From: Armatimonadota bacterium
GTDB taxonomy: Bacteria; Sysuimicrobiota; Sysuimicrobiia; Sysuimicrobiales; Sysuimicrobiaceae
DNA length: 64,000 nt
NCBI GenBank assembly: GCA_025060455.1
Contig: JANXBY010000003.1
Coordinates: forward strand, 34,719 to 98,718
Direction: 5' to 3'
Part shown: positions 5,673 through 55,193 of the stretch, piece after piece
Layout: every line of letters starts with the position of its first letter
Position numbering within the stretch: the first letter of the stretch is position 1
Notes under the pieces: generated by a model
The model's input: only the letters and a program-made list of their open reading frames with translations
Databases searched by the model: none
Told to the model about the DNA's origin: nothing
Program-made: the position numbers and the translations under genes

Positions 5673-7436
5673 GTGGAGACCAGAGAAAAGGCGCAGCTAC
5701 CCGGTGGGGGATTCCTGGTGACGCCGAGCGCCCCGGAGGAGGTGTTCACCCCCGAGGATTTGGACACCACCCACCGCATGGTGCGCAAGGCCGCCGCGGA
5801 CTTCATGGAACGTGAGGTCCTCCCGCGGGATGCGCAGCTGGAAAACCAGGACTGGGAGCTCACGCGGTCGCTGCTGCGCAAGCTGGGCGAACTGGGGTTC
5901 CTGGCCCCGGACCTGCCGGAGGAGTACGGGGGCGGAGGCATGGACAGCCTGACCTCCCTGGTGCTGGCGGAGGAGCTGTCCGGGTCGTCCTTTTCGGTGA
6001 GCTACGGAGGCCACGTGGGCATCGGCACCCTGCCCATCGCCTTCTTCGGCAACGAGGATCAGAAGCGCCGGTACCTTCCCGCCATGGCCCGCGGGGAGAA
6101 GGTGGGTGCCTACGCCCTCACGGAGCCCACCGCGGGGTCGGACGCCCTGTCCATCCGGACCCGGGCTACCCTCAGCCCGGACGGCCGGTATTACCTGCTG
6201 TCCGGCCAGAAGCAGTTCATCACCAACGCGGCCTTCGCGGACGTGTTCACGGTGTACGCCAAGGTGGACGGCGAGCACTTCACCGCGTTCATCGTGGACC
6301 GGGACACCGAAGGGCTCAGCCTGGGGGACGAGGAGCATAAGATGGGGGTTAAGGGCTCCTCCACCCGCAGCGTGTTCCTGGAGAACGCCAAGGTGCCCGT
6401 GGAGAACCTCCTGGGGGAGGTGGGGAAGGGTCACCGCATCGCCTTCAACATCCTGAACCTGGGCCGCTTCAAGATCGGCGCCGCGTGTCTGGGCGGTGGC
6501 AAGAAGGCCCTTCGGCACGCGGTGGCGTACGCCCAGCAGCGCCACCAGTTCGGCCGGCCCATCGCGGAGTTCGGGCTGATCCGCCAGAAGCTGGCGCGCA
6601 TCGCGGTGGGGTTGTATGCGGTGGAGAGCATGGTCTACCGCACGGGTGGGTTGGTGGAGGGCGCGGTGGGCCGCATCCGCTCGGGCCAGGAGGTCCTGCG
6701 GGCGCTGGAGGAGTACGCGGTGGAGTCGTCCATGAACAAAGTGTTCGCCACGGAGGTGCTGGACTTCGTGGTGGACGAGGTGGTGCAGATCTACGGCGGC
6801 TACGGCTACGTCGAGGAGTACCCCGCGGCCCGGGCGTACCGGGACGCCCGCATCAACCGGATCTGGGAGGGCACCAACGAGATCAACCGGCTGTTGATCG
6901 TGGACATGCTCACCAAGCGGGCCCTGCGGGGCCGGCTGGATCTCACAGGCGCCATCCAGCGGGTGGTGGCGGAGCTCACTGCGCCGCCCGCCGACGAGCC
7001 CGGGGACGGGCCCCTGGCGGAGGAGGCCCGGTTGGTGGAGGGCATGCGGAAGGCGGCCCTGCTCGCCGCGGGGGTGGCGGTGCAGAAGCAGCTGGATCGG
7101 TTGGAGGAGCTGCAGGAAGTCCTGGGCTGGATCGCGGACCTGGCCACGGAGGTGTTCGCCGCGCAGAGCAGCCTGTTGCGGGCCCAGAAGGCGGCGCTGC
7201 GGCAGGATCCCAAGGCGGCGCTGCTCGCGACCCTGACCCGGGCTCACGTGTACGAAGCCCTACCCCGGGTGGAGGCGACCACACGCCAGGTGCTGGCCGC
7301 GGTGGACGAGGGCGACAGCCTCCGCACGGAGCTGGCAGGCCTGCGCCGGTTCTTGCGCCACACACCCACGAACCTGGTGGCCCTGCAGCGGGAGGTGGCG
7401 GAGGCGGTGCTGCGCGCGGGGGGCTACCCCGTGTAG
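5673..7436 (+). CDS. fadE: Acyl-CoA dehydrogenase (long FadE-type)
   Basis: Acyl-CoA dehydrogenase N, middle and C domains (YALTEPTAGSDA, GYVEEYPAARAYRDARINRIWEGTNEI). GTG at 5673 follows GGAGGGGA. About 588 aa, matching B. subtilis FadE. Confidence 0.8.
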   Translation: METREKAQLPGGGFLVTPSAPEEVFTPEDLDTTHRMVRKAAADFMEREVLPRDAQLENQDWELTRSLLRKLGELGFLAPDLPEEYGGGGMDSLTSLVLAEELSGSSFSVSYGGHVGIGTLPIAFFGNEDQKRRYLPAMARGEKVGAYALTEPTAGSDALSIRTRATLSPDGRYYLLSGQKQFITNAAFADVFTVYAKVDGEHFTAFIVDRDTEGLSLGDEEHKMGVKGSSTRSVFLENAKVPVENLLGEVGKGHRIAFNILNLGRFKIGAACLGGGKKALRHAVAYAQQRHQFGRPIAEFGLIRQKLARIAVGLYAVESMVYRTGGLVEGAVGRIRSGQEVLRALEEYAVESSMNKVFATEVLDFVVDEVVQIYGGYGYVEEYPAARAYRDARINRIWEGTNEINRLLIVDMLTKRALRGRLDLTGAIQRVVAELTAPPADEPGDGPLAEEARLVEGMRKAALLAAGVAVQKQLDRLEELQEVLGWIADLATEVFAAQSSLLRAQKAALRQDPKAALLATLTRAHVYEALPRVEATTRQVLAAVDEGDSLRTELAGLRRFLRHTPTNLVALQREVAEAVLRAGGYPV

Positions 7437-26249: not shown

Positions 26250-27242
26250 ATGTCCAGGGCACAGGGCAGCGCCGCAGCGGCGGGAACCCGCACCGCGAGT
26301 CTGACCGAGGGCGCCCTGCTGGCGGCCCTGACCGCGCTCGTGGCCTTGCTGGTGGCGCTGCTGGGCTCTCCGGGACTGGTGGCTGCTCCCCTTCCGCTGT
26401 TCGTGCTCACGTACCGCCGCGGGGTCCGGACCGCGGTCCTGAGCGCGGTCGTTGCGGGGCTGGCGCTTTCCCCCTTCTTCGGCTTCCCGCAGGGTCTTTT
26501 GTTCGTGGCCGCGTTCGCGCCCGTGGGCGTGGTGCAGGGATGGGTGGCCCGGAGGGGAGGAGGCGAAGTCGCCGGGCGCGCGGTGCTGGCTGGCGCGGCG
26601 GTGGGTGTGGCGGTGACCGTGCTGAGCCTTGCGGTCAGCCGTTTCGTGATCGGGATCGACCCTCTCGAGGCGGTGGTGGAAGCCCAGGTGAAGGGGGCCG
26701 AGGCGGCTGCGGACCTCAGCCGGCGGCTTGGGGCACCGCCTCAGCAGATCCAGCAGATGGAGCAGCTGGCCAAGCAGATGCCGGAGCTGGTTCGCACCAT
26801 CCTGCCCGCAGCCGTGGCCTTGGGCGTCCTGGTGTGGGCCTACGCTGCGTACGCCCTGGGGCGGCACGTGATGCGCCGCCTCGGGACAGAGCTGCCTGGG
26901 TTCGCACCCATCCTCACGTGGCGGCTGCCGCCCGCGGGCGCGGTGATCCTGGTCCTGCCCGTGCTGGCGGGAGTGGTGGTCCAGCCGTGGGCTCCTCAAG
27001 TGGGCCGGGCGCTGGCCGCAAACGGGTTCATGGCCAGCGTATTGGTGTTCGCGTTTTTCGGCGTCCTCACCATGTTGCACTACCTGAACTCCCGGGAGGT
27101 TCCCCGGGCGGGCAGGGTGATGGCGGTGGTGGCGGTCCTGATGCTGGGTGACCTGGGTACCTTCGCGATGGTGGCCCTGGGCGTGGTGGACCTGTGGCTG
27201 GACCTGCGGAAGGTGGGGCCGCGGGGGGAACGTCCGCTATGA
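26250..27242 (+). CDS. yybS: YybS-like integral membrane protein (DUF2232)
   Basis: Multi-TM protein in the conserved position between rpsR and rplI. Its stop overlaps the rplI start (ATGA). Confidence 0.7.
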   Translation: MSRAQGSAAAAGTRTASLTEGALLAALTALVALLVALLGSPGLVAAPLPLFVLTYRRGVRTAVLSAVVAGLALSPFFGFPQGLLFVAAFAPVGVVQGWVARRGGGEVAGRAVLAGAAVGVAVTVLSLAVSRFVIGIDPLEAVVEAQVKGAEAAADLSRRLGAPPQQIQQMEQLAKQMPELVRTILPAAVALGVLVWAYAAYALGRHVMRRLGTELPGFAPILTWRLPPAGAVILVLPVLAGVVVQPWAPQVGRALAANGFMASVLVFAFFGVLTMLHYLNSREVPRAGRVMAVVAVLMLGDLGTFAMVALGVVDLWLDLRKVGPRGERPL

Positions 27243-27685
27243 AGGTGATCCTGATCCAGGACGTGCCGTCGTTGGGTAAGGCCGGCGCGGTGGTGGACGT
27301 CCGGGAGGGCTACGCCCGCAACTACCTGCTGCCCAGGGGGCTTGCGCGGGAGGCCACGGAGGGCCAGCTGCGGGCGCTGGAGCAGGAGCGGGCGGTGCGC
27401 GAACGGAAGCTGGCGCGGGAGCGGCAGCGGGCCGTGGAGGTGGCTCACGCCCTGCAGAGCCGTCCGGTGCGGATCCGGGCGAAGGCAGGGGCCGGCGGGA
27501 AGCTGTTCGGGTCGGTGACCGCGCAGCAGGTGGCGGAGGCGCTGCGGCAGATGGGCTTTGAGGTGGACCGCAGGCAGGTAGAGCTGGCGGAGCCCATCAA
27601 GGCGGTGGGAACCTACCGGGTCACGGTCCGGCTCCCCCACGGGCAGCAGGCAGAGGTGGAAGTGCAGGTGACCGGCGATGGCTGA
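27239..27685 (+). CDS. rplI: 50S ribosomal protein L9
   Basis: MKVILIQDVPSLGKAGAVVDVREGYARNYLLPRGLA matches the L9 N-domain. Confidence 0.9.
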   Translation: MKVILIQDVPSLGKAGAVVDVREGYARNYLLPRGLAREATEGQLRALEQERAVRERKLARERQRAVEVAHALQSRPVRIRAKAGAGGKLFGSVTAQQVAEALRQMGFEVDRRQVELAEPIKAVGTYRVTVRLPHGQQAEVEVQVTGDG

Positions 27686-29594
27686 ACGGGTGGGCGCCGC
27701 ACGCAGCATCAGGGTGCGGAACCGGGCCGAGTTGAAGCGCCGGGTGGGGGCCCTGTTCACGGTCCTCAGCGACGTGTACGGCCCGGAGCGGCTCATCGTG
27801 AAGGCAGGGAAGCTCGAGGCCCTCACACTCATGCGATCCCCCCGCCTGGCGGATCGGGTGGTGGCCCTGCAGCGGCTGGTGTACGAGGATCCGACCATCC
27901 AGCGGGCCCCCTCCGAGGCGGAGATCCCGAAGGTGTTGTCCGAGATCGAGGAGGAGCTGGCGGACCTAGTGGCGCAGCGCCGGGTGGAGGAGGAGCTGGA
28001 GCGCAAGGTGGCCGAGCGCATGAACCGCCGCCAGGACGACTACCTCCAGGAAATCCGGCTCCAGGTGCTCCGCGAGGCCGCGGGGCCGGAGAACGCCAGC
28101 ACCCGAAAGAAGCTGGAGGAGCTGGAAGCGCTGGAACGAGTCCGGCTGTCCCAGTCCGCCCTGGAGGCCCTGCGCCCCCGACGGCTGAAGGAGGTGGTGG
28201 GTCAAGAGCGCGCCATCCGGGCTCTGCTGGCTAAGCTGGCCACCCCCTACCCTCAGCACGTGATCCTGTACGGGCCGCCCGGGGTGGGTAAGACCACCGT
28301 GGCACGGCTGGCCCTGGAGGAAGCACGGCGGCTTCCGTACACCCCCTTCCCGGAGAACGCGCCCTTCGTGGAGGTGGACGGAAGTACCCTGCGGTGGGAC
28401 CCGCGGGAGGTCACCAACCCCCTCCTGGGGTCTGTGCACGACCCCATCTATCAGGGCTCGCGACGGGACTTCGCGGAAGGGGGCATTCCGGAGCCGAAGC
28501 TGGGGCTGGTCACCCGCGCCCACGGCGGCGTGCTGTTCATCGACGAGATCGGGGAGATGGACCCACTCCTGCAGGCCAAGCTGCTGAAGGTCCTGGAGGA
28601 CAAGCGGGTGACCTTTGAGTCCAGCTACTACGACCCGGACGACCCCCACGTGCCCGCCTACGTGCGCCGCCTGTTTGAGCAGGGCGCGCCCGCGGACTTC
28701 GTGCTGATCGGCGCCACCACCCGGGACCCGGAGGAGATCAGCCCCACCCTACGGTCTCGGTGCGCGGAGGTGTTCTTCGACCCTCTGTCGCAGTCGGACA
28801 TCGAGCGCATCGTGGTGCAGGCGGCGAAGCGGCTGCGCGTCAGCCTGGACCCCAAGGTGCCCGAGCTCATCGCCGCGTACACGGTGGAGGGGCGCAAGGC
28901 CGTGAACCTCCTCGCGGACGCCTACGGGATGGCCCTGTACCGCCGGAAGGGGCGGGGCGGCCGGGTGCGGATCACCCAGGAGGACATGCTGGAGGTCGTG
29001 CGGGTCTCACGTCTGGCGCCGTTTTCCAGCGCCCGGGCCTCGGAAACACCTGAGGTGGGGAAGGTGTTCGGGCTGGGCGTGGCGCACTACCTGGGCTCGG
29101 TGGTGGAGGTGGAGGCCGCGGTGTTCCCCGCCGCGCAGCGGGGCCGCGGCACGGTGCGGTTCAACGAGACCGCGGGCACCATGGCCAAGGACTCGGTGTT
29201 CAACGCCCTGTCGGTGCTGCGCCGGCTGCTGGGGGTCGACCTAGCGAACTACGACGTGCACGTGAACGTGGTGGGCGGCGGGTTGGTGGACGGCCCGAGC
29301 CTGGGGCTGGCCATCACGGCGGCCCTGGCGAGCGCGGTGCAGAACCGGCCGGCGCTGCAGAACGTGGCCCTCACCGGCGAGGTGAGCATCCAGGGCCGGG
29401 TGCGGGGCGTCGGAGGCATTCCGGAGAAGCTGTACGGCGCCCGACAGGCGGGGATGAAGAAGGTGGTGGTCCCACAGGAGAATCAGAACGACCTGCCCTC
29501 CGAGGTGTCGGGCCTGCAGGTTGTCCTGGTGCAGACGGTGGAGGAGGCCCTTCCGCACGTGCTGGTGGCCGCCCGGCGCCGGTCGCGGGCCTGA
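27678..29594 (+). CDS. Lon-family ATP-dependent protease (LonB/LonC-like, no Lon N-domain)
   Basis: AAA+ Walker A ILYGPPGVGKTTVARL, Walker B VLFIDEIGEMD, and a Lon proteolytic domain with the DGPSLGLAI serine motif. Overlaps the rplI stop. Confidence 0.85.
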   Translation: MAERVGAARSIRVRNRAELKRRVGALFTVLSDVYGPERLIVKAGKLEALTLMRSPRLADRVVALQRLVYEDPTIQRAPSEAEIPKVLSEIEEELADLVAQRRVEEELERKVAERMNRRQDDYLQEIRLQVLREAAGPENASTRKKLEELEALERVRLSQSALEALRPRRLKEVVGQERAIRALLAKLATPYPQHVILYGPPGVGKTTVARLALEEARRLPYTPFPENAPFVEVDGSTLRWDPREVTNPLLGSVHDPIYQGSRRDFAEGGIPEPKLGLVTRAHGGVLFIDEIGEMDPLLQAKLLKVLEDKRVTFESSYYDPDDPHVPAYVRRLFEQGAPADFVLIGATTRDPEEISPTLRSRCAEVFFDPLSQSDIERIVVQAAKRLRVSLDPKVPELIAAYTVEGRKAVNLLADAYGMALYRRKGRGGRVRITQEDMLEVVRVSRLAPFSSARASETPEVGKVFGLGVAHYLGSVVEVEAAVFPAAQRGRGTVRFNETAGTMAKDSVFNALSVLRRLLGVDLANYDVHVNVVGGGLVDGPSLGLAITAALASAVQNRPALQNVALTGEVSIQGRVRGVGGIPEKLYGARQAGMKKVVVPQENQNDLPSEVSGLQVVLVQTVEEALPHVLVAARRRSRA

Positions 29595-29600
29595 CGGCGG

Positions 29601-29729
29601 TTACCCACACCGTCCACAATCCAGACTCCCCACAGTTTTTCCACACCCCGTCCCGCGCTCCGGCCCGGCCCTTCCCCAGGTGGTCCCCACGGTCCACGAA
29701 TCCACAGCTTGCTCCCGCTGCGTTCCACA
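29601..29729 (+). promoter_or_regulatory. Cluster of DnaA-box-like motifs (TTATCCACA relatives) upstream of dnaB
   Basis: TTACCCACA (29601), GTCCACAAT (29612), TTTTCCACA (29637), GGTCCACGA (29690), AATCCACAG (29699) and GTTCCACAG (29722), all in the same orientation. This 130-nt stretch has lower GC than its surroundings. Confidence 0.45.
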
Positions 29730-29787
29730 GCCGCGGTGTAGTAGGAGTTCCCCGTCGAGCCGGTAGAAAAGCAGGCGAACGGACGTT

Positions 29788-29796
29788 TGCTACAAT
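29788..29796 (+). promoter_or_regulatory. Extended -10 element TGCTACAAT for dnaB
   Basis: TGnTACAAT lies 12 nt upstream of the dnaB ATG region. RBS GGAGGT lies 5 nt before ATG 29808. Confidence 0.35.
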
Positions 29797-29807
29797 GGAG
29801 GTCGGAC

Positions 29808-50640: not shown

Positions 50641-52860
50641 GTGGCCCGGGCCGTCGCGCTCCCTCAGACCCGGTGGGCGGCCCAGCCGGCGGTGGCCGCG
50701 TGGGCCGCCGCGACCGTGCTCGCCGCCGCGGCACTGCCGTGGGGCCGCGCGGGCCGCGACCTGGGATCCTGGCTGTGGGACTCCACAGGCGTTGTGCTAG
50801 CGTCGGGTTCCCTCCTGGCGGCAGGCGTTCTGCTGGCCTCCTTCGCCGTTCTCCTGGCAGGGCTGTGGCCCGCGCCGGAGCGCACCCGCGGGGTGGCGCT
50901 AGCGGCCTTCGGAGCGTGCGGGATGGCGCTGTCCGGCCTGCTCCTCGGGGTGCGGGGCACGCCCACAGGGCCGGCCGGCGTCCTGGCACCCCTGGGGTTC
51001 TTGACCCTCACGGGCTTCGGGCTTTCGTCCTCCGGTCGATGGTTTGTAGACCCGTTCCTGTCCGCCGCGGTGCTCTGGGCCGCGGCCTTCGTGGCGTTGT
51101 TCATCCTGCTCCCCCTGGCCTCGGTGGTGGTGGCCAGCGTGTGGGTGGACGGCCGCTTCACCCTAGAGGTGGTGCACCGGACCCTGACCTCGCCTGCCTT
51201 CCTCGCCCTCGACCACCCCGGGACGCCGCACAACGAGCTCGCGGTGGCGGCCGCGGTGGGCTTGGCGGTGGCGGTGGGGACCTTGGTCCTCGGATGGTAC
51301 CTCAGGTGGAGCCGCCGGAGCCTTCCCGCGGGCGGGGCGGCCGGCCTCGCCGCAGCCGCACTGGCGAGCCTGTACCTGGGGTTTGGGGCCTTCCGCAACA
51401 GCCTCCTGCTCGCGGTGGTGGTGGGCGCGGTGTCTACGGCCCTGGGGTTCGCGTTTGCGCTCCTTTCGGAACGGTCGCAGCTGCCCACGCGCCGCCTGTT
51501 GGGGACGCTGTCGGCCCTCCCCATCATCACGCCGCCCTTCGTGTTGGGGATCGCCATGCTGTACCTGTTCGGCCGGCGTGGGTTCGTGACGTACCGCCTC
51601 CTGGGAGTTTCCACGGACGTGTTCTTCGGACCGTTGGGGGTAGCGGTGGCCCAGGTGCTGGCGTACACGCCCATCGCGTACCTGGTCCTGGTGGGCGTGG
51701 TCCGAGCGCTGGACGCGAGCCTGGAGGAGGCGGCGCAGACCCTGGGCGCCTCGCCCTGGCACCTGGTGCGCACGGTTATCTGGCCCCTCGCGCGCCCCGG
51801 CCTCGCGAACGCGTTCCTCCTGGTGGCCATCGAGAGTCTGGCGGACTTCGCCAACCCCATCGTGGTGGGCGGCGGAAAGCCGTTTTTGGCCACCGAGGTG
51901 TTCTTCGCCATCGTGGGCCGGTATAACCCGCACGAGGCGGCCACCTACGGGGCGGTGCTGCTGGCCCTCACCCTGACCGTGTTCGTGTTTCAGCAGCGGT
52001 GGTTGGGTGGGGCGTTCTACGTCACCGTCACGGGCCGTCCCACGGGTGCTCGGCCGCAGCCCCTGCCGCTGTGGCTGGACTGGGCCCTGTCCGCGGTGTT
52101 CGTGGTGTGGATGGTAGTGGTGGTCCTGCTGTACGGGTCGGTGTTCGTGGGGGCGGTGACGCGCCTGTGGGGATTCGACTACACCTTCACCCTGCGTCAC
52201 CTGCAGGACCTCCACCCGCAGGGCTGGCAGGTCCTGCGGACCACGGTGCAGCTGTCTGCGTACGCCGCGGTGCCCTCCGTGGTGGTGGGGTTTCTGATCG
52301 GCTACCTGGTGAACCGGGTGGACTTTCCCGGCCGGCGGGCGCTGGAGTTCAGCTCCATGCTGTCGTTCGCCACGCCGGGGACCGTCATGGGGATCGGGTA
52401 CGTGCTGGCCTTCAACCAGGGGCCGTTGCTGCTCACGGGCACGGAGCTGGTGATCGTGCTGGCCTTCGTGTTCCGCAACATGCCAGTGGCCATCCGGGCC
52501 GCGGTGGCCGCCTTGGAGCAGATCGACCGCTCTTTGGAGGAGGCCAGCACGATGCTCCGGGCGGGTGCGAGTACCACGTTGCGGCGGGTGGTGGCACCCC
52601 TCGCCCGGTCTGCCCTCCTGTCCGGGCTGGTGTTCGCGTTCGTGCGGGCCATGACGGCGGTCAGCCAGGTGATCTTCCTCATCACGCCGCAGCACAACCT
52701 GGCCACCACCCAGATCCTGTCGTACCTGGAGTACGGCAGTCAGGGTCGGGGGGCCGCCCTGGCATCCGTCCTGACGCTGCTCCTGGTGACCGTGGTGGCG
52801 TCCCTCCAGGCATTGAGCCGGCGCCTGGATCCCAGGACGGCCCAGCTGGGGGCGGGGTGA
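50641..52860 (+). CDS. ABC transporter permease, two-domain iron(III)-type with extra N-terminal TM region
   Basis: About 739 aa with two MetI-like domains (PLARPGLANAFLLVAIESLADF and a second copy). GTG start at 50641. Confidence 0.75.
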   Translation: MARAVALPQTRWAAQPAVAAWAAATVLAAAALPWGRAGRDLGSWLWDSTGVVLASGSLLAAGVLLASFAVLLAGLWPAPERTRGVALAAFGACGMALSGLLLGVRGTPTGPAGVLAPLGFLTLTGFGLSSSGRWFVDPFLSAAVLWAAAFVALFILLPLASVVVASVWVDGRFTLEVVHRTLTSPAFLALDHPGTPHNELAVAAAVGLAVAVGTLVLGWYLRWSRRSLPAGGAAGLAAAALASLYLGFGAFRNSLLLAVVVGAVSTALGFAFALLSERSQLPTRRLLGTLSALPIITPPFVLGIAMLYLFGRRGFVTYRLLGVSTDVFFGPLGVAVAQVLAYTPIAYLVLVGVVRALDASLEEAAQTLGASPWHLVRTVIWPLARPGLANAFLLVAIESLADFANPIVVGGGKPFLATEVFFAIVGRYNPHEAATYGAVLLALTLTVFVFQQRWLGGAFYVTVTGRPTGARPQPLPLWLDWALSAVFVVWMVVVVLLYGSVFVGAVTRLWGFDYTFTLRHLQDLHPQGWQVLRTTVQLSAYAAVPSVVVGFLIGYLVNRVDFPGRRALEFSSMLSFATPGTVMGIGYVLAFNQGPLLLTGTELVIVLAFVFRNMPVAIRAAVAALEQIDRSLEEASTMLRAGASTTLRRVVAPLARSALLSGLVFAFVRAMTAVSQVIFLITPQHNLATTQILSYLEYGSQGRGAALASVLTLLLVTVVASLQALSRRLDPRTAQLGAG

Positions 52861-55091: not shown

Positions 55092-55099
55092 GAGGACCT

Positions 55100-55193
55100 G
55101 GCGGAGGGGGTGGGATTCGAACCCACGGGCGGGGTTTTTGCCCCGCCACGGTTTAGCAAACCGCCGCCTTGGACCGCTCGGCCACCCCTCCGG
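55100..55193 (-). tRNA. tRNA-Ser (anticodon GCU), class II with long variable arm, CCA encoded
   Basis: Minus-strand sequence GGAGGGG-TG-GCCGAGCGGTCCAAGGC-G-GCGGT-TTGCTAA-ACCGT-[long variable arm]-GTGGG-TTCGAAT-CCCAC-CCCCTCC-G-CCA. A TTGACA -35 lies upstream. Confidence 0.85.

Follow-up and report, generated by a model that had tools for sequence, protein, structure and literature searches.

A single-orientation cluster of predicted DnaA boxes, adjoined by a putative LexA operator, upstream of dnaB, the gene of the replicative helicase, in a lineage near bacterium HR32

Why should the short stretch of DNA that leads into the gene of the replicative helicase be crowded with motifs resembling the binding site of the initiator DnaA, all of them pointing the same way? 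This is the question raised by positions 29601-29729 of the 64 kb of DNA analysed here (hereafter the window, 71% G+C), where an earlier note had seen a cluster of DnaA boxes that could either regulate dnaB or titrate DnaA. The answer bears on more than one locus. DnaA acting as a transcription factor, and being itself buffered by clusters of boxes outside the origin, has been shown in a few model bacteria, and the generality of this behavior is poorly known.

The genome closest to the window is that of bacterium HR32, with DNA 81% identical across 5.6 kb. HR32 is the namesake of the family HRBIN32 in the candidate phylum CSP1-3, a group of hot-spring thermophiles (PMC11962464). The host is thus a lineage near HR32 and no relative of Bacillus, and the succession ychF-ssb-yybS-rplI-dnaB resembles the origin-proximal block of Firmicutes. 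In its first 20 kb the window encodes transporters, enzymes for the oxidation of fatty acids and further metabolic functions, and contains neither dnaA, dnaN nor any other gene of an origin. A gene for a Lon-like protease is wedged between rplI and dnaB, its own start overlapping the stop of rplI. The dnaB gene carries an intein at about codons 215-557, inserted in the P-loop between GK and T; the dnaB of HR32 appears to have an intein at the same P-loop site, and its counterpart in a metagenome-assembled genome (MAG) from Centralia matches the spliced protein contiguously.

The array in the window

Six [T/C]CCACA cores, eight when CCACG variants are counted, lie between 29601 and 29729, every one of them on the + strand (Table 1). 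The six motifs that the earlier note had listed are all in place (TTACCCACA at 29601-09, GTCCACAAT at 29612-20, TTTTCCACA at 29637-45, GGTCCACGA at 29691-99, AATCCACAG at 29699-707 and GTTCCACAG at 29722-30), and its claim of a common orientation holds too, the - strand of the region containing zero [TC]CCACA. Some details had to be amended. Only two of the six motifs had been read in the right register, the other four being off that of a DnaA box (the corrected 9-mers are CCGTCCACA, CGGTCCACG, GAATCCACA and CGTTCCACA); two further motifs, CTCCCCACA and GTCCCCACG, had been missed; and the end given for the array, 29729, drops the final G of its last motif as the note itself had read it.

Table 1. 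Features of the dnaB locus, with coordinates in the window. Bits are scores of a weight matrix derived from relatives.
Feature	Position	Strand	Remarks
ychF, ssb, DUF2232 (yybS-like) membrane protein gene, then rplI	rplI 27194-27685	+	Gene order before the Lon-like gene and dnaB
Lon-like AAA+/S16 protease gene	27678-29594	+	Co-directional, upstream of dnaB; Pfam
Predicted DnaA box 1, TTACCCACA	29601-29609	+	1 mismatch to TTATCCACA; 12.0 bits; HR32 has CTACCCACA
Predicted DnaA box 2, CCGTCCACA	29610-29618	+	Abuts box 1; 2 mismatches to TTGTCCACA; 9.6 bits; GTCCACAA identical in HR32
Predicted DnaA box 3, CTCCCCACA	29626-29634	+	Weak; 10.0 bits; HR32 has CTGCCCACA
Predicted DnaA box 4, TTTTCCACA	29637-29645	+	11 bp past box 3; 1 mismatch; 12.0 bits; aligned HR32 sequence is TTACCCACA
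Box-like motifs 5, GTCCCCACG (29683-91), and 6, CGGTCCACG (29690-98)	29683-29698	+	Overlapping, weak, doubtful; CGGTCCACG 3.1 bits; not conserved in HR32
Predicted DnaA box 7, GAATCCACA	29698-29706	+	Top score, 13.6 bits; 2 mismatches; GAATCCACAGCTTG identical in HR32
Predicted DnaA box 8, CGTTCCACA	29721-29729	+	9.6 bits; 23 bp past box 7; the expected -35 follows after about 40 bp; HR32 has a degenerate version (GGTCACAG)
Putative LexA (Cheo/SOS) box, CGAACGGACGTTTG	29776-29789		In the promoter spacer; overlaps the TG of the extended -10
Extended -10, TGcTACAAT (TGCTACAAT)	29788-29796	+	-35 poor; no tool-called -35/-10 pair in the window
Shine-Dalgarno, GGAGG	29797-29801	+	6 nt before the ATG, directly after the -10 hexamer
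dnaB, replicative helicase, with intein at the P-loop	29808-32183	+	Pfam DnaB, DnaB_C and Intein_splicing; translation

The individual motifs differ widely in quality. On a scoring that assumes the near-universal consensus, from which the box preference of this lineage's own oriC may differ, three of the eight are at most two mismatches away from TTATCCACA (one for TTACCCACA and TTTTCCACA, two for GAATCCACA) and the other five have three to four. The window has three boxes with at most one mismatch to TTATCCACA; two of them fall in the array, 36 nt apart. The spacing between neighbors (9, 16 and 11 bp at the upstream end, 8 and 23 bp at the downstream end) keeps the motifs only partly in phase. 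The array is probably best described as six to eight head-to-tail boxes directed towards dnaB, among which one to three would be moderately good (TTACCCACA, TTTTCCACA and GAATCCACA) and the rest weak, a description that shares the rather favorable standing we give to the explanation as a whole. A tandem or slippage repeat was considered and rejected, the direct repeats found being imperfect, 8-15 nt long and irregularly spaced; so was an inverted repeat formed by 29586-29600 and 29653-29667, since HR32 differs from it over most of the alignment.

Is such a cluster to be expected by chance in DNA of this composition? The + strand of the 64 kb contains 35 [TC]CCACA, six of them packed within 126 nt at the array, and 16 TCCACA, of which the array has four. 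Outside the span of the cluster no other 130-nt window on the + strand reaches three cores, and the best one on the - strand has two. Shuffling the region never reproduced its six cores, whether mononucleotide composition (0/20000) or first-order Markov structure (0/20000) was kept. The earlier note had held that its reading would fall if boxes were no more frequent here than in random windows of matched GC, and the array proved far denser: among 9321 GC-matched windows (129 nt, 60-72% GC, drawn from all sequence compared), at least three cores were found exclusively upstream of dnaB, in the clade described below and in a contig designated L157. The weight-matrix scan that the note had proposed gave a similar picture. 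With a matrix made from the relatives alone, the window and HR32 being excluded, the array totals 73 bits per 130 nt, against 23 and 32 bits for the next best stretches on the + and - strands. The runner-up on the - strand is a loose trio of TGTGG[A/G] at 52069-52175, within an open reading frame of the + strand, and is probably due to chance. The note's remark on a lower GC content is borne out as well: the region has 65% G+C, which puts it in the 6th percentile of 129-nt windows.

Conservation of the array and identity of its boxes

Relatives of the locus were gathered with a metagenome scan using the DnaB N-terminal domain, which returned L081-L090 (95-64% identity), and with a genome scan, which added HR32 (L036) and the Centralia MAG (L001; 70% identity over the spliced DnaB, 63% over its N-terminal domain). 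Ten relatives, whose DnaB N-termini are 63-95% identical, carry same-orientation arrays of TCCACA/CCCACA at the same place, between the upstream stop codon and dnaB. The weakest is that of L088, with two CCACA sites only, located far upstream. The gene that precedes the array is the Lon-like protease in most relatives, rplI in L001 and L090, where it lies directly upstream of dnaB with no Lon-like gene in between, and yet another gene in L088. Since the upstream gene varies while the array persists, the array travels with dnaB.

An unbiased hexamer count over 10 non-redundant intergenic regions of the clade points to the same motif. TCCACA comes out as the top hexamer, with 20 occurrences observed for 0.7 expected and not a single reverse complement, and is followed by CCACAG and CCCACA. 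Conservation is concentrated in the motifs: when the intergenic regions of the window and HR32 are aligned, 74% of the box columns are identical versus 41% of the others, although two of the eight window motifs are not conserved in HR32. Box columns were the better conserved ones in 7/7 pairs compared, by a slight margin in two of them. Such islands of conservation mark the array as being under selection.

The sequences that flank the core argue that these islands are DnaA boxes. Because the clade sites are phylogenetically related, flank and spacing statistics are inflated, and it is with this inflation that the following should be read: over 36 CCACA sites of the clade, position 2 is T in 50% (10% in 156 background sites), position 1 is T or C, position 3 is A in 44% and G in 31%, and position 4 is T in 56%, C in 33% and A in 0%, while adjacent boxes are spaced by 11 bp in 11/47 pairs and by 22-24 bp in 9/47. 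Such spacings put the boxes head-to-tail along the same helical face. The resulting consensus, [TC][TA][AG][TC]CCACA, agrees with the T, T, A/G and T found at positions 1-4 of a DnaA box. Perfect boxes are also present in seven relatives, as TTATCCACA in L085 and as TTGTCCACA, the form typical of high-GC bacteria, in L081, L082, L083, L086, L087 and L001.

Direct repeats spaced by one helical turn can have other owners. Repeats 11 bp apart are typical of winged-helix response regulators, so that the motifs might be sites for another direct-repeat-binding protein, for instance of the OmpR/WalR/MtrA type, and L001 does contain GTCACAGCG, which we take to match the reported mycobacterial MtrA motif. 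We regard this as quite improbable. The T-T-[A/G]-T flanks and the perfect boxes of the seven relatives are features of DnaA boxes, response regulators do not usually have arrays of 5-8 units, the locus has no linked regulator gene, and the core read on the reverse strand, TGTGGA, is unlike the WalR motif TGTWAH. A further signal, TCCCCA(G), is co-enriched in the orientation of the boxes (13 observed versus 1 expected; e.g. 29673-29679 in the window). It is no recognised variant of the DnaA box and counts against the DnaA-box reading.

The region could also act as RNA. With 62 C versus 22 G in 129 nt, and no intrinsic terminator found by a terminator scan between the Lon-like gene and dnaB, one may think of a C-rich, G-poor Rho utilisation site that ends the rplI-lon transcript, or of some other element in the dnaB leader. 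A Rho utilisation site calls for some 80 nt or more of transcribed sequence in which C far outnumbers G, and the raw composition fits. This reading is in our opinion very improbable. With the boxes masked, the skew of the window shrinks from -0.38 to -0.12 and that of most relatives to about 0; the C excess nearly vanishes, and is therefore a by-product of box orientation. Also, the enrichment concerns one specific hexamer and not C-rich words generally. A structured RNA or a known RNA family was rejected, as the region folds no better than its shuffles (z = +0.23) and has no match in Rfam; the sole Rfam match in the window is a tRNA-Ser (GCT) at 55099-55191, on the - strand.

Enrichment, conserved islands, box-like flanks, uniform orientation, spacing and linkage to dnaB thus converge on the reading proposed at the outset, which is supported because it came through every computational test able to refute it. 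By sequence-level criteria, the region is supported as a non-origin cluster of predicted DnaA boxes.

A putative LexA operator in the dnaB core promoter

The clade has a second enriched signal downstream of the array, made of GCGAAC, GTTTGC and TTGCTA. In the window it reads CGAACGGACGTTTG and is followed by cTACAAT. The LexA operator of Gram-positive bacteria is an inverted repeat, GAAC-N4-GTT[C/T], and this Cheo-type motif has been published for Firmicutes, Actinobacteria and Clostridia (PMC4951493, PMC4234289). Allowing one mismatch, CGAACGGACGTTTG is one of only two matches in the 64 kb, the other being inside an open reading frame. A LexA box is found at the same place in 11/11 loci of the clade (e.g. 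CGAACATATGTTCT in L001 and CGAACACAGGTTCG in L086) and in 0/148 other dnaB loci; these 11 account for a third of the 34 occurrences of the motif in 1.34 Mb. The box is 85-100% identical between relatives. Neither lexA nor recA was found among the open reading frames scanned (window 1-34 kb).

What kind of promoter does this box belong to? The earlier note had pointed to an extended -10 upstream of dnaB. This is supported by relatives, in which the scan tool calls sigma-70 promoters at the corresponding site (TTGACA-18-TATACT in L090, TTGACA-18-TATTCT in L087 and TGGACG-17-TATAAT in L001); what the note overlooked is the putative LexA operator in the spacer. In these three relatives exactly one promoter was called each, and each time the LexA box lies in its spacer. 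With an operator in this position, transcription of dnaB from the core promoter is predicted to be repressed by LexA and inducible by SOS. We found no report of LexA control of dnaB in the searchable literature.

The note had also assigned a strong ribosome-binding site to dnaB. GGAGG is indeed present, but it directly adjoins the -10 hexamer TACAAT (29791-96), and the two are unable to serve the same mRNA. The same adjacency is seen in L081-L085 and in HR32. A transcript from this promoter would, because of it, start about 5 nt before the ATG, devoid of a Shine-Dalgarno sequence and nearly leaderless. As the Shine-Dalgarno sequence is conserved, we infer that longer transcripts also exist, produced by read-through from the co-directional upstream gene.

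Possible roles of the array

A cluster of many DnaA boxes in the same direction, sitting beside the helicase gene, brings to mind an origin of replication, or the module of a split origin that serves for unwinding, and a sequence that follows the last box, GTAGTAGGAG (29738-47), superficially resembles DnaA-trios. We give this idea next to no credit, and an oriC or secondary origin was rejected on three counts: skew, trios and AT content. An origin needs a left flank with negative GC skew; here that flank is strongly positive (+0.12 at 27-29 kb), and the right one is positive too (+0.05 at 29-31 kb). More broadly, the skew is about +0.10 to the left of 29.6 kb, and at 30-38 kb, as again after 55 kb, it drops to values around or below zero over genes of the - strand. 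This pattern indicates that the + strand is leading all along and that the site does not lie at an origin-type skew switch. (From about 55 kb on, both genes and GC skew turn to the - strand.) As for the trios, the rule for the basal unwinding system (BUS) asks for a box with at most two mismatches, a spacer of 0-16 bp and then at least three DnaA-trios (NAN) (PMC8287927). No run of at least three NAN or NTN trios was found within 16 bp of any box of the window under either strand convention, GTAGTAGGAG is not conserved in relatives, and the trio matches that relatives do have are sporadic and non-conserved. There is no AT-rich unwinding element either: no stretch of 20 nt exceeds 55% AT, a value reached at the -10. 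Finally, no dnaA or dnaN was seen within 30 kb either way, nor an oriC in the window or the relatives' loci (open reading frames scanned: window 1-34 kb).

The array can be compared with several known systems. Low-affinity arrays of oriC and BUS share with the clade arrays their same-orientation boxes and a spacing of 11 bp, the commonest in the clade, a layout that supports head-to-tail DnaA oligomers; the window departs from them in lacking DnaA-trios, an AT-rich unwinding element and a switch of GC skew. The E. coli datA and DARS sites are likewise clusters of DnaA boxes outside the origin, and modulate the availability of DnaA or its nucleotide state; datA needs an IHF site and DARS a specific three-box core. 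The DnaA-box clusters of Bacillus are stably occupied by DnaA, control the gene that follows them (sda is up-regulated, ywlC and yydA are down-regulated) and restrain initiation (PMC3245932, PMC4447404). They resemble the array in having several boxes in intergenic or promoter DNA away from the origin. In contrast, the array of the window belongs to another lineage, has dnaB as its putative target, keeps one orientation, consists mostly of weak boxes and adjoins a putative LexA operator. Closer in terms of target is Caulobacter crescentus, an unrelated phylum, where the account of Hottes 2005 given in PMC8203912 places dnaB in the DnaA regulon, with predicted DnaA boxes upstream and DnaA-dependent expression. 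Both systems would thus have predicted boxes upstream of the replicative helicase gene; that account describes no long conserved array and reports no LexA operator. For the pairing of DnaA with LexA, the closest functional precedent is, by analogy, the promoter region of E. coli uvrB, in which DnaA and LexA boxes overlap and compete and both proteins repress (PMC6015884). There, as in the window, the two kinds of boxes share one promoter region, but uvrB is a repair gene, whereas the window has a helicase gene and its two elements are about 45 bp apart.

The reading we lean towards, and consider rather probable, is that of a cooperative DnaA-binding array that would modulate transcription into dnaB and titrate DnaA, upstream of an SOS-repressed core promoter. 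DnaA, most likely in its ATP form, would nucleate on the better boxes and then spread cooperatively over the weak and partly phased ones, as it does on the low-affinity arrays of oriC and on the Bacillus clusters. The bound oligomer would occupy the gap that separates the upstream gene from dnaB, with the core promoter of dnaB lying 40-170 bp further downstream. There it would stand in the path of read-through transcription and could modulate the transcription that enters dnaB, while the LexA operator in the core-promoter spacer would add SOS control.

The direction of this regulation is a guess from the position of the boxes. The box layout of B. subtilis sda offers an analogue for activation. 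We favor activation of the promoter, which would couple the supply of helicase to the potential for initiation, because the array precedes the -35 and because dnaB of Caulobacter (PMC8203912) and B. subtilis sda offer analogies. Alternatively, the oligomer could repress, or act as a roadblock to transcription that reads through from the operon before it. Titration of DnaA would be a by-product of the array in either direction.

Titration could also be the whole story. The array would then be a pure site of DnaA titration or inactivation, like the Bacillus cluster DBC[yydA-yycS] or E. coli datA, that buffers free DnaA and delays re-initiation with no direct effect on dnaB. Any array of DnaA boxes titrates DnaA, no box overlaps the -35 or the -10, and in B. 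subtilis the clusters affect initiation independently of the expression of the neighboring gene and precede different genes in different species (PMC3245932). Here, to the contrary, the array is kept exactly upstream of dnaB across the clade despite differing upstream genes, which is more readily understood as a cis-regulatory link than as a sink that could lie anywhere, and all boxes face dnaB. We consider a pure sink unlikely on these grounds, although regulation and titration are not separable from sequence.

DnaA-box clusters outside oriC are already known, and no new mechanism is revealed here. New are dnaB as the target, the strict single orientation, the conservation across an uncultured lineage and the pairing with a putative LexA operator at an essential gene of the replisome. 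We found no report, in the searchable literature, of a DnaA array combined with a LexA operator on such a gene. It is tempting to go one step further and to imagine, as a tentative possibility, that two sensors of replication status set the supply of helicase throughout the lineage: the array of weak, phased boxes would sense ATP-DnaA, and the LexA operator would make an essential replisome gene SOS-inducible. There would then be two classes of dnaB mRNA, one bearing the Shine-Dalgarno sequence, produced by read-through and gated by the array, the other nearly leaderless and induced by damage.

Comparative sequence alone has in this case brought out a selected array of predicted DnaA boxes that stays with the helicase gene throughout an uncultured lineage of thermophiles, beside a putative LexA operator. 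The locus offers a clean, testable case in which the initiator and the SOS repressor would converge on a core gene of the replisome, and its 10 diverged arrays constitute a natural set of box variants for studies of cooperative DnaA binding.

The array is not a general feature of dnaB genes, as no such cluster was found at 77 dnaB loci of other phyla. Isolated cases exist in two lineages. In L052, a Chloroflexia MAG, TTGTCCACG-gg-TTATCCACA (5850-5880) lies about 135 nt upstream of dnaB. In L157, a contig of 71% GC, TTGTCCACA is accompanied by two further TCCACA motifs and by TGTGGATAA in inverted orientation upstream of dnaB (745-850), about 210-290 nt before the ATG that opens a long N-terminal extension of DnaB. 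Given these boxes in unrelated lineages, the link between DnaA and dnaB may have arisen more than once.
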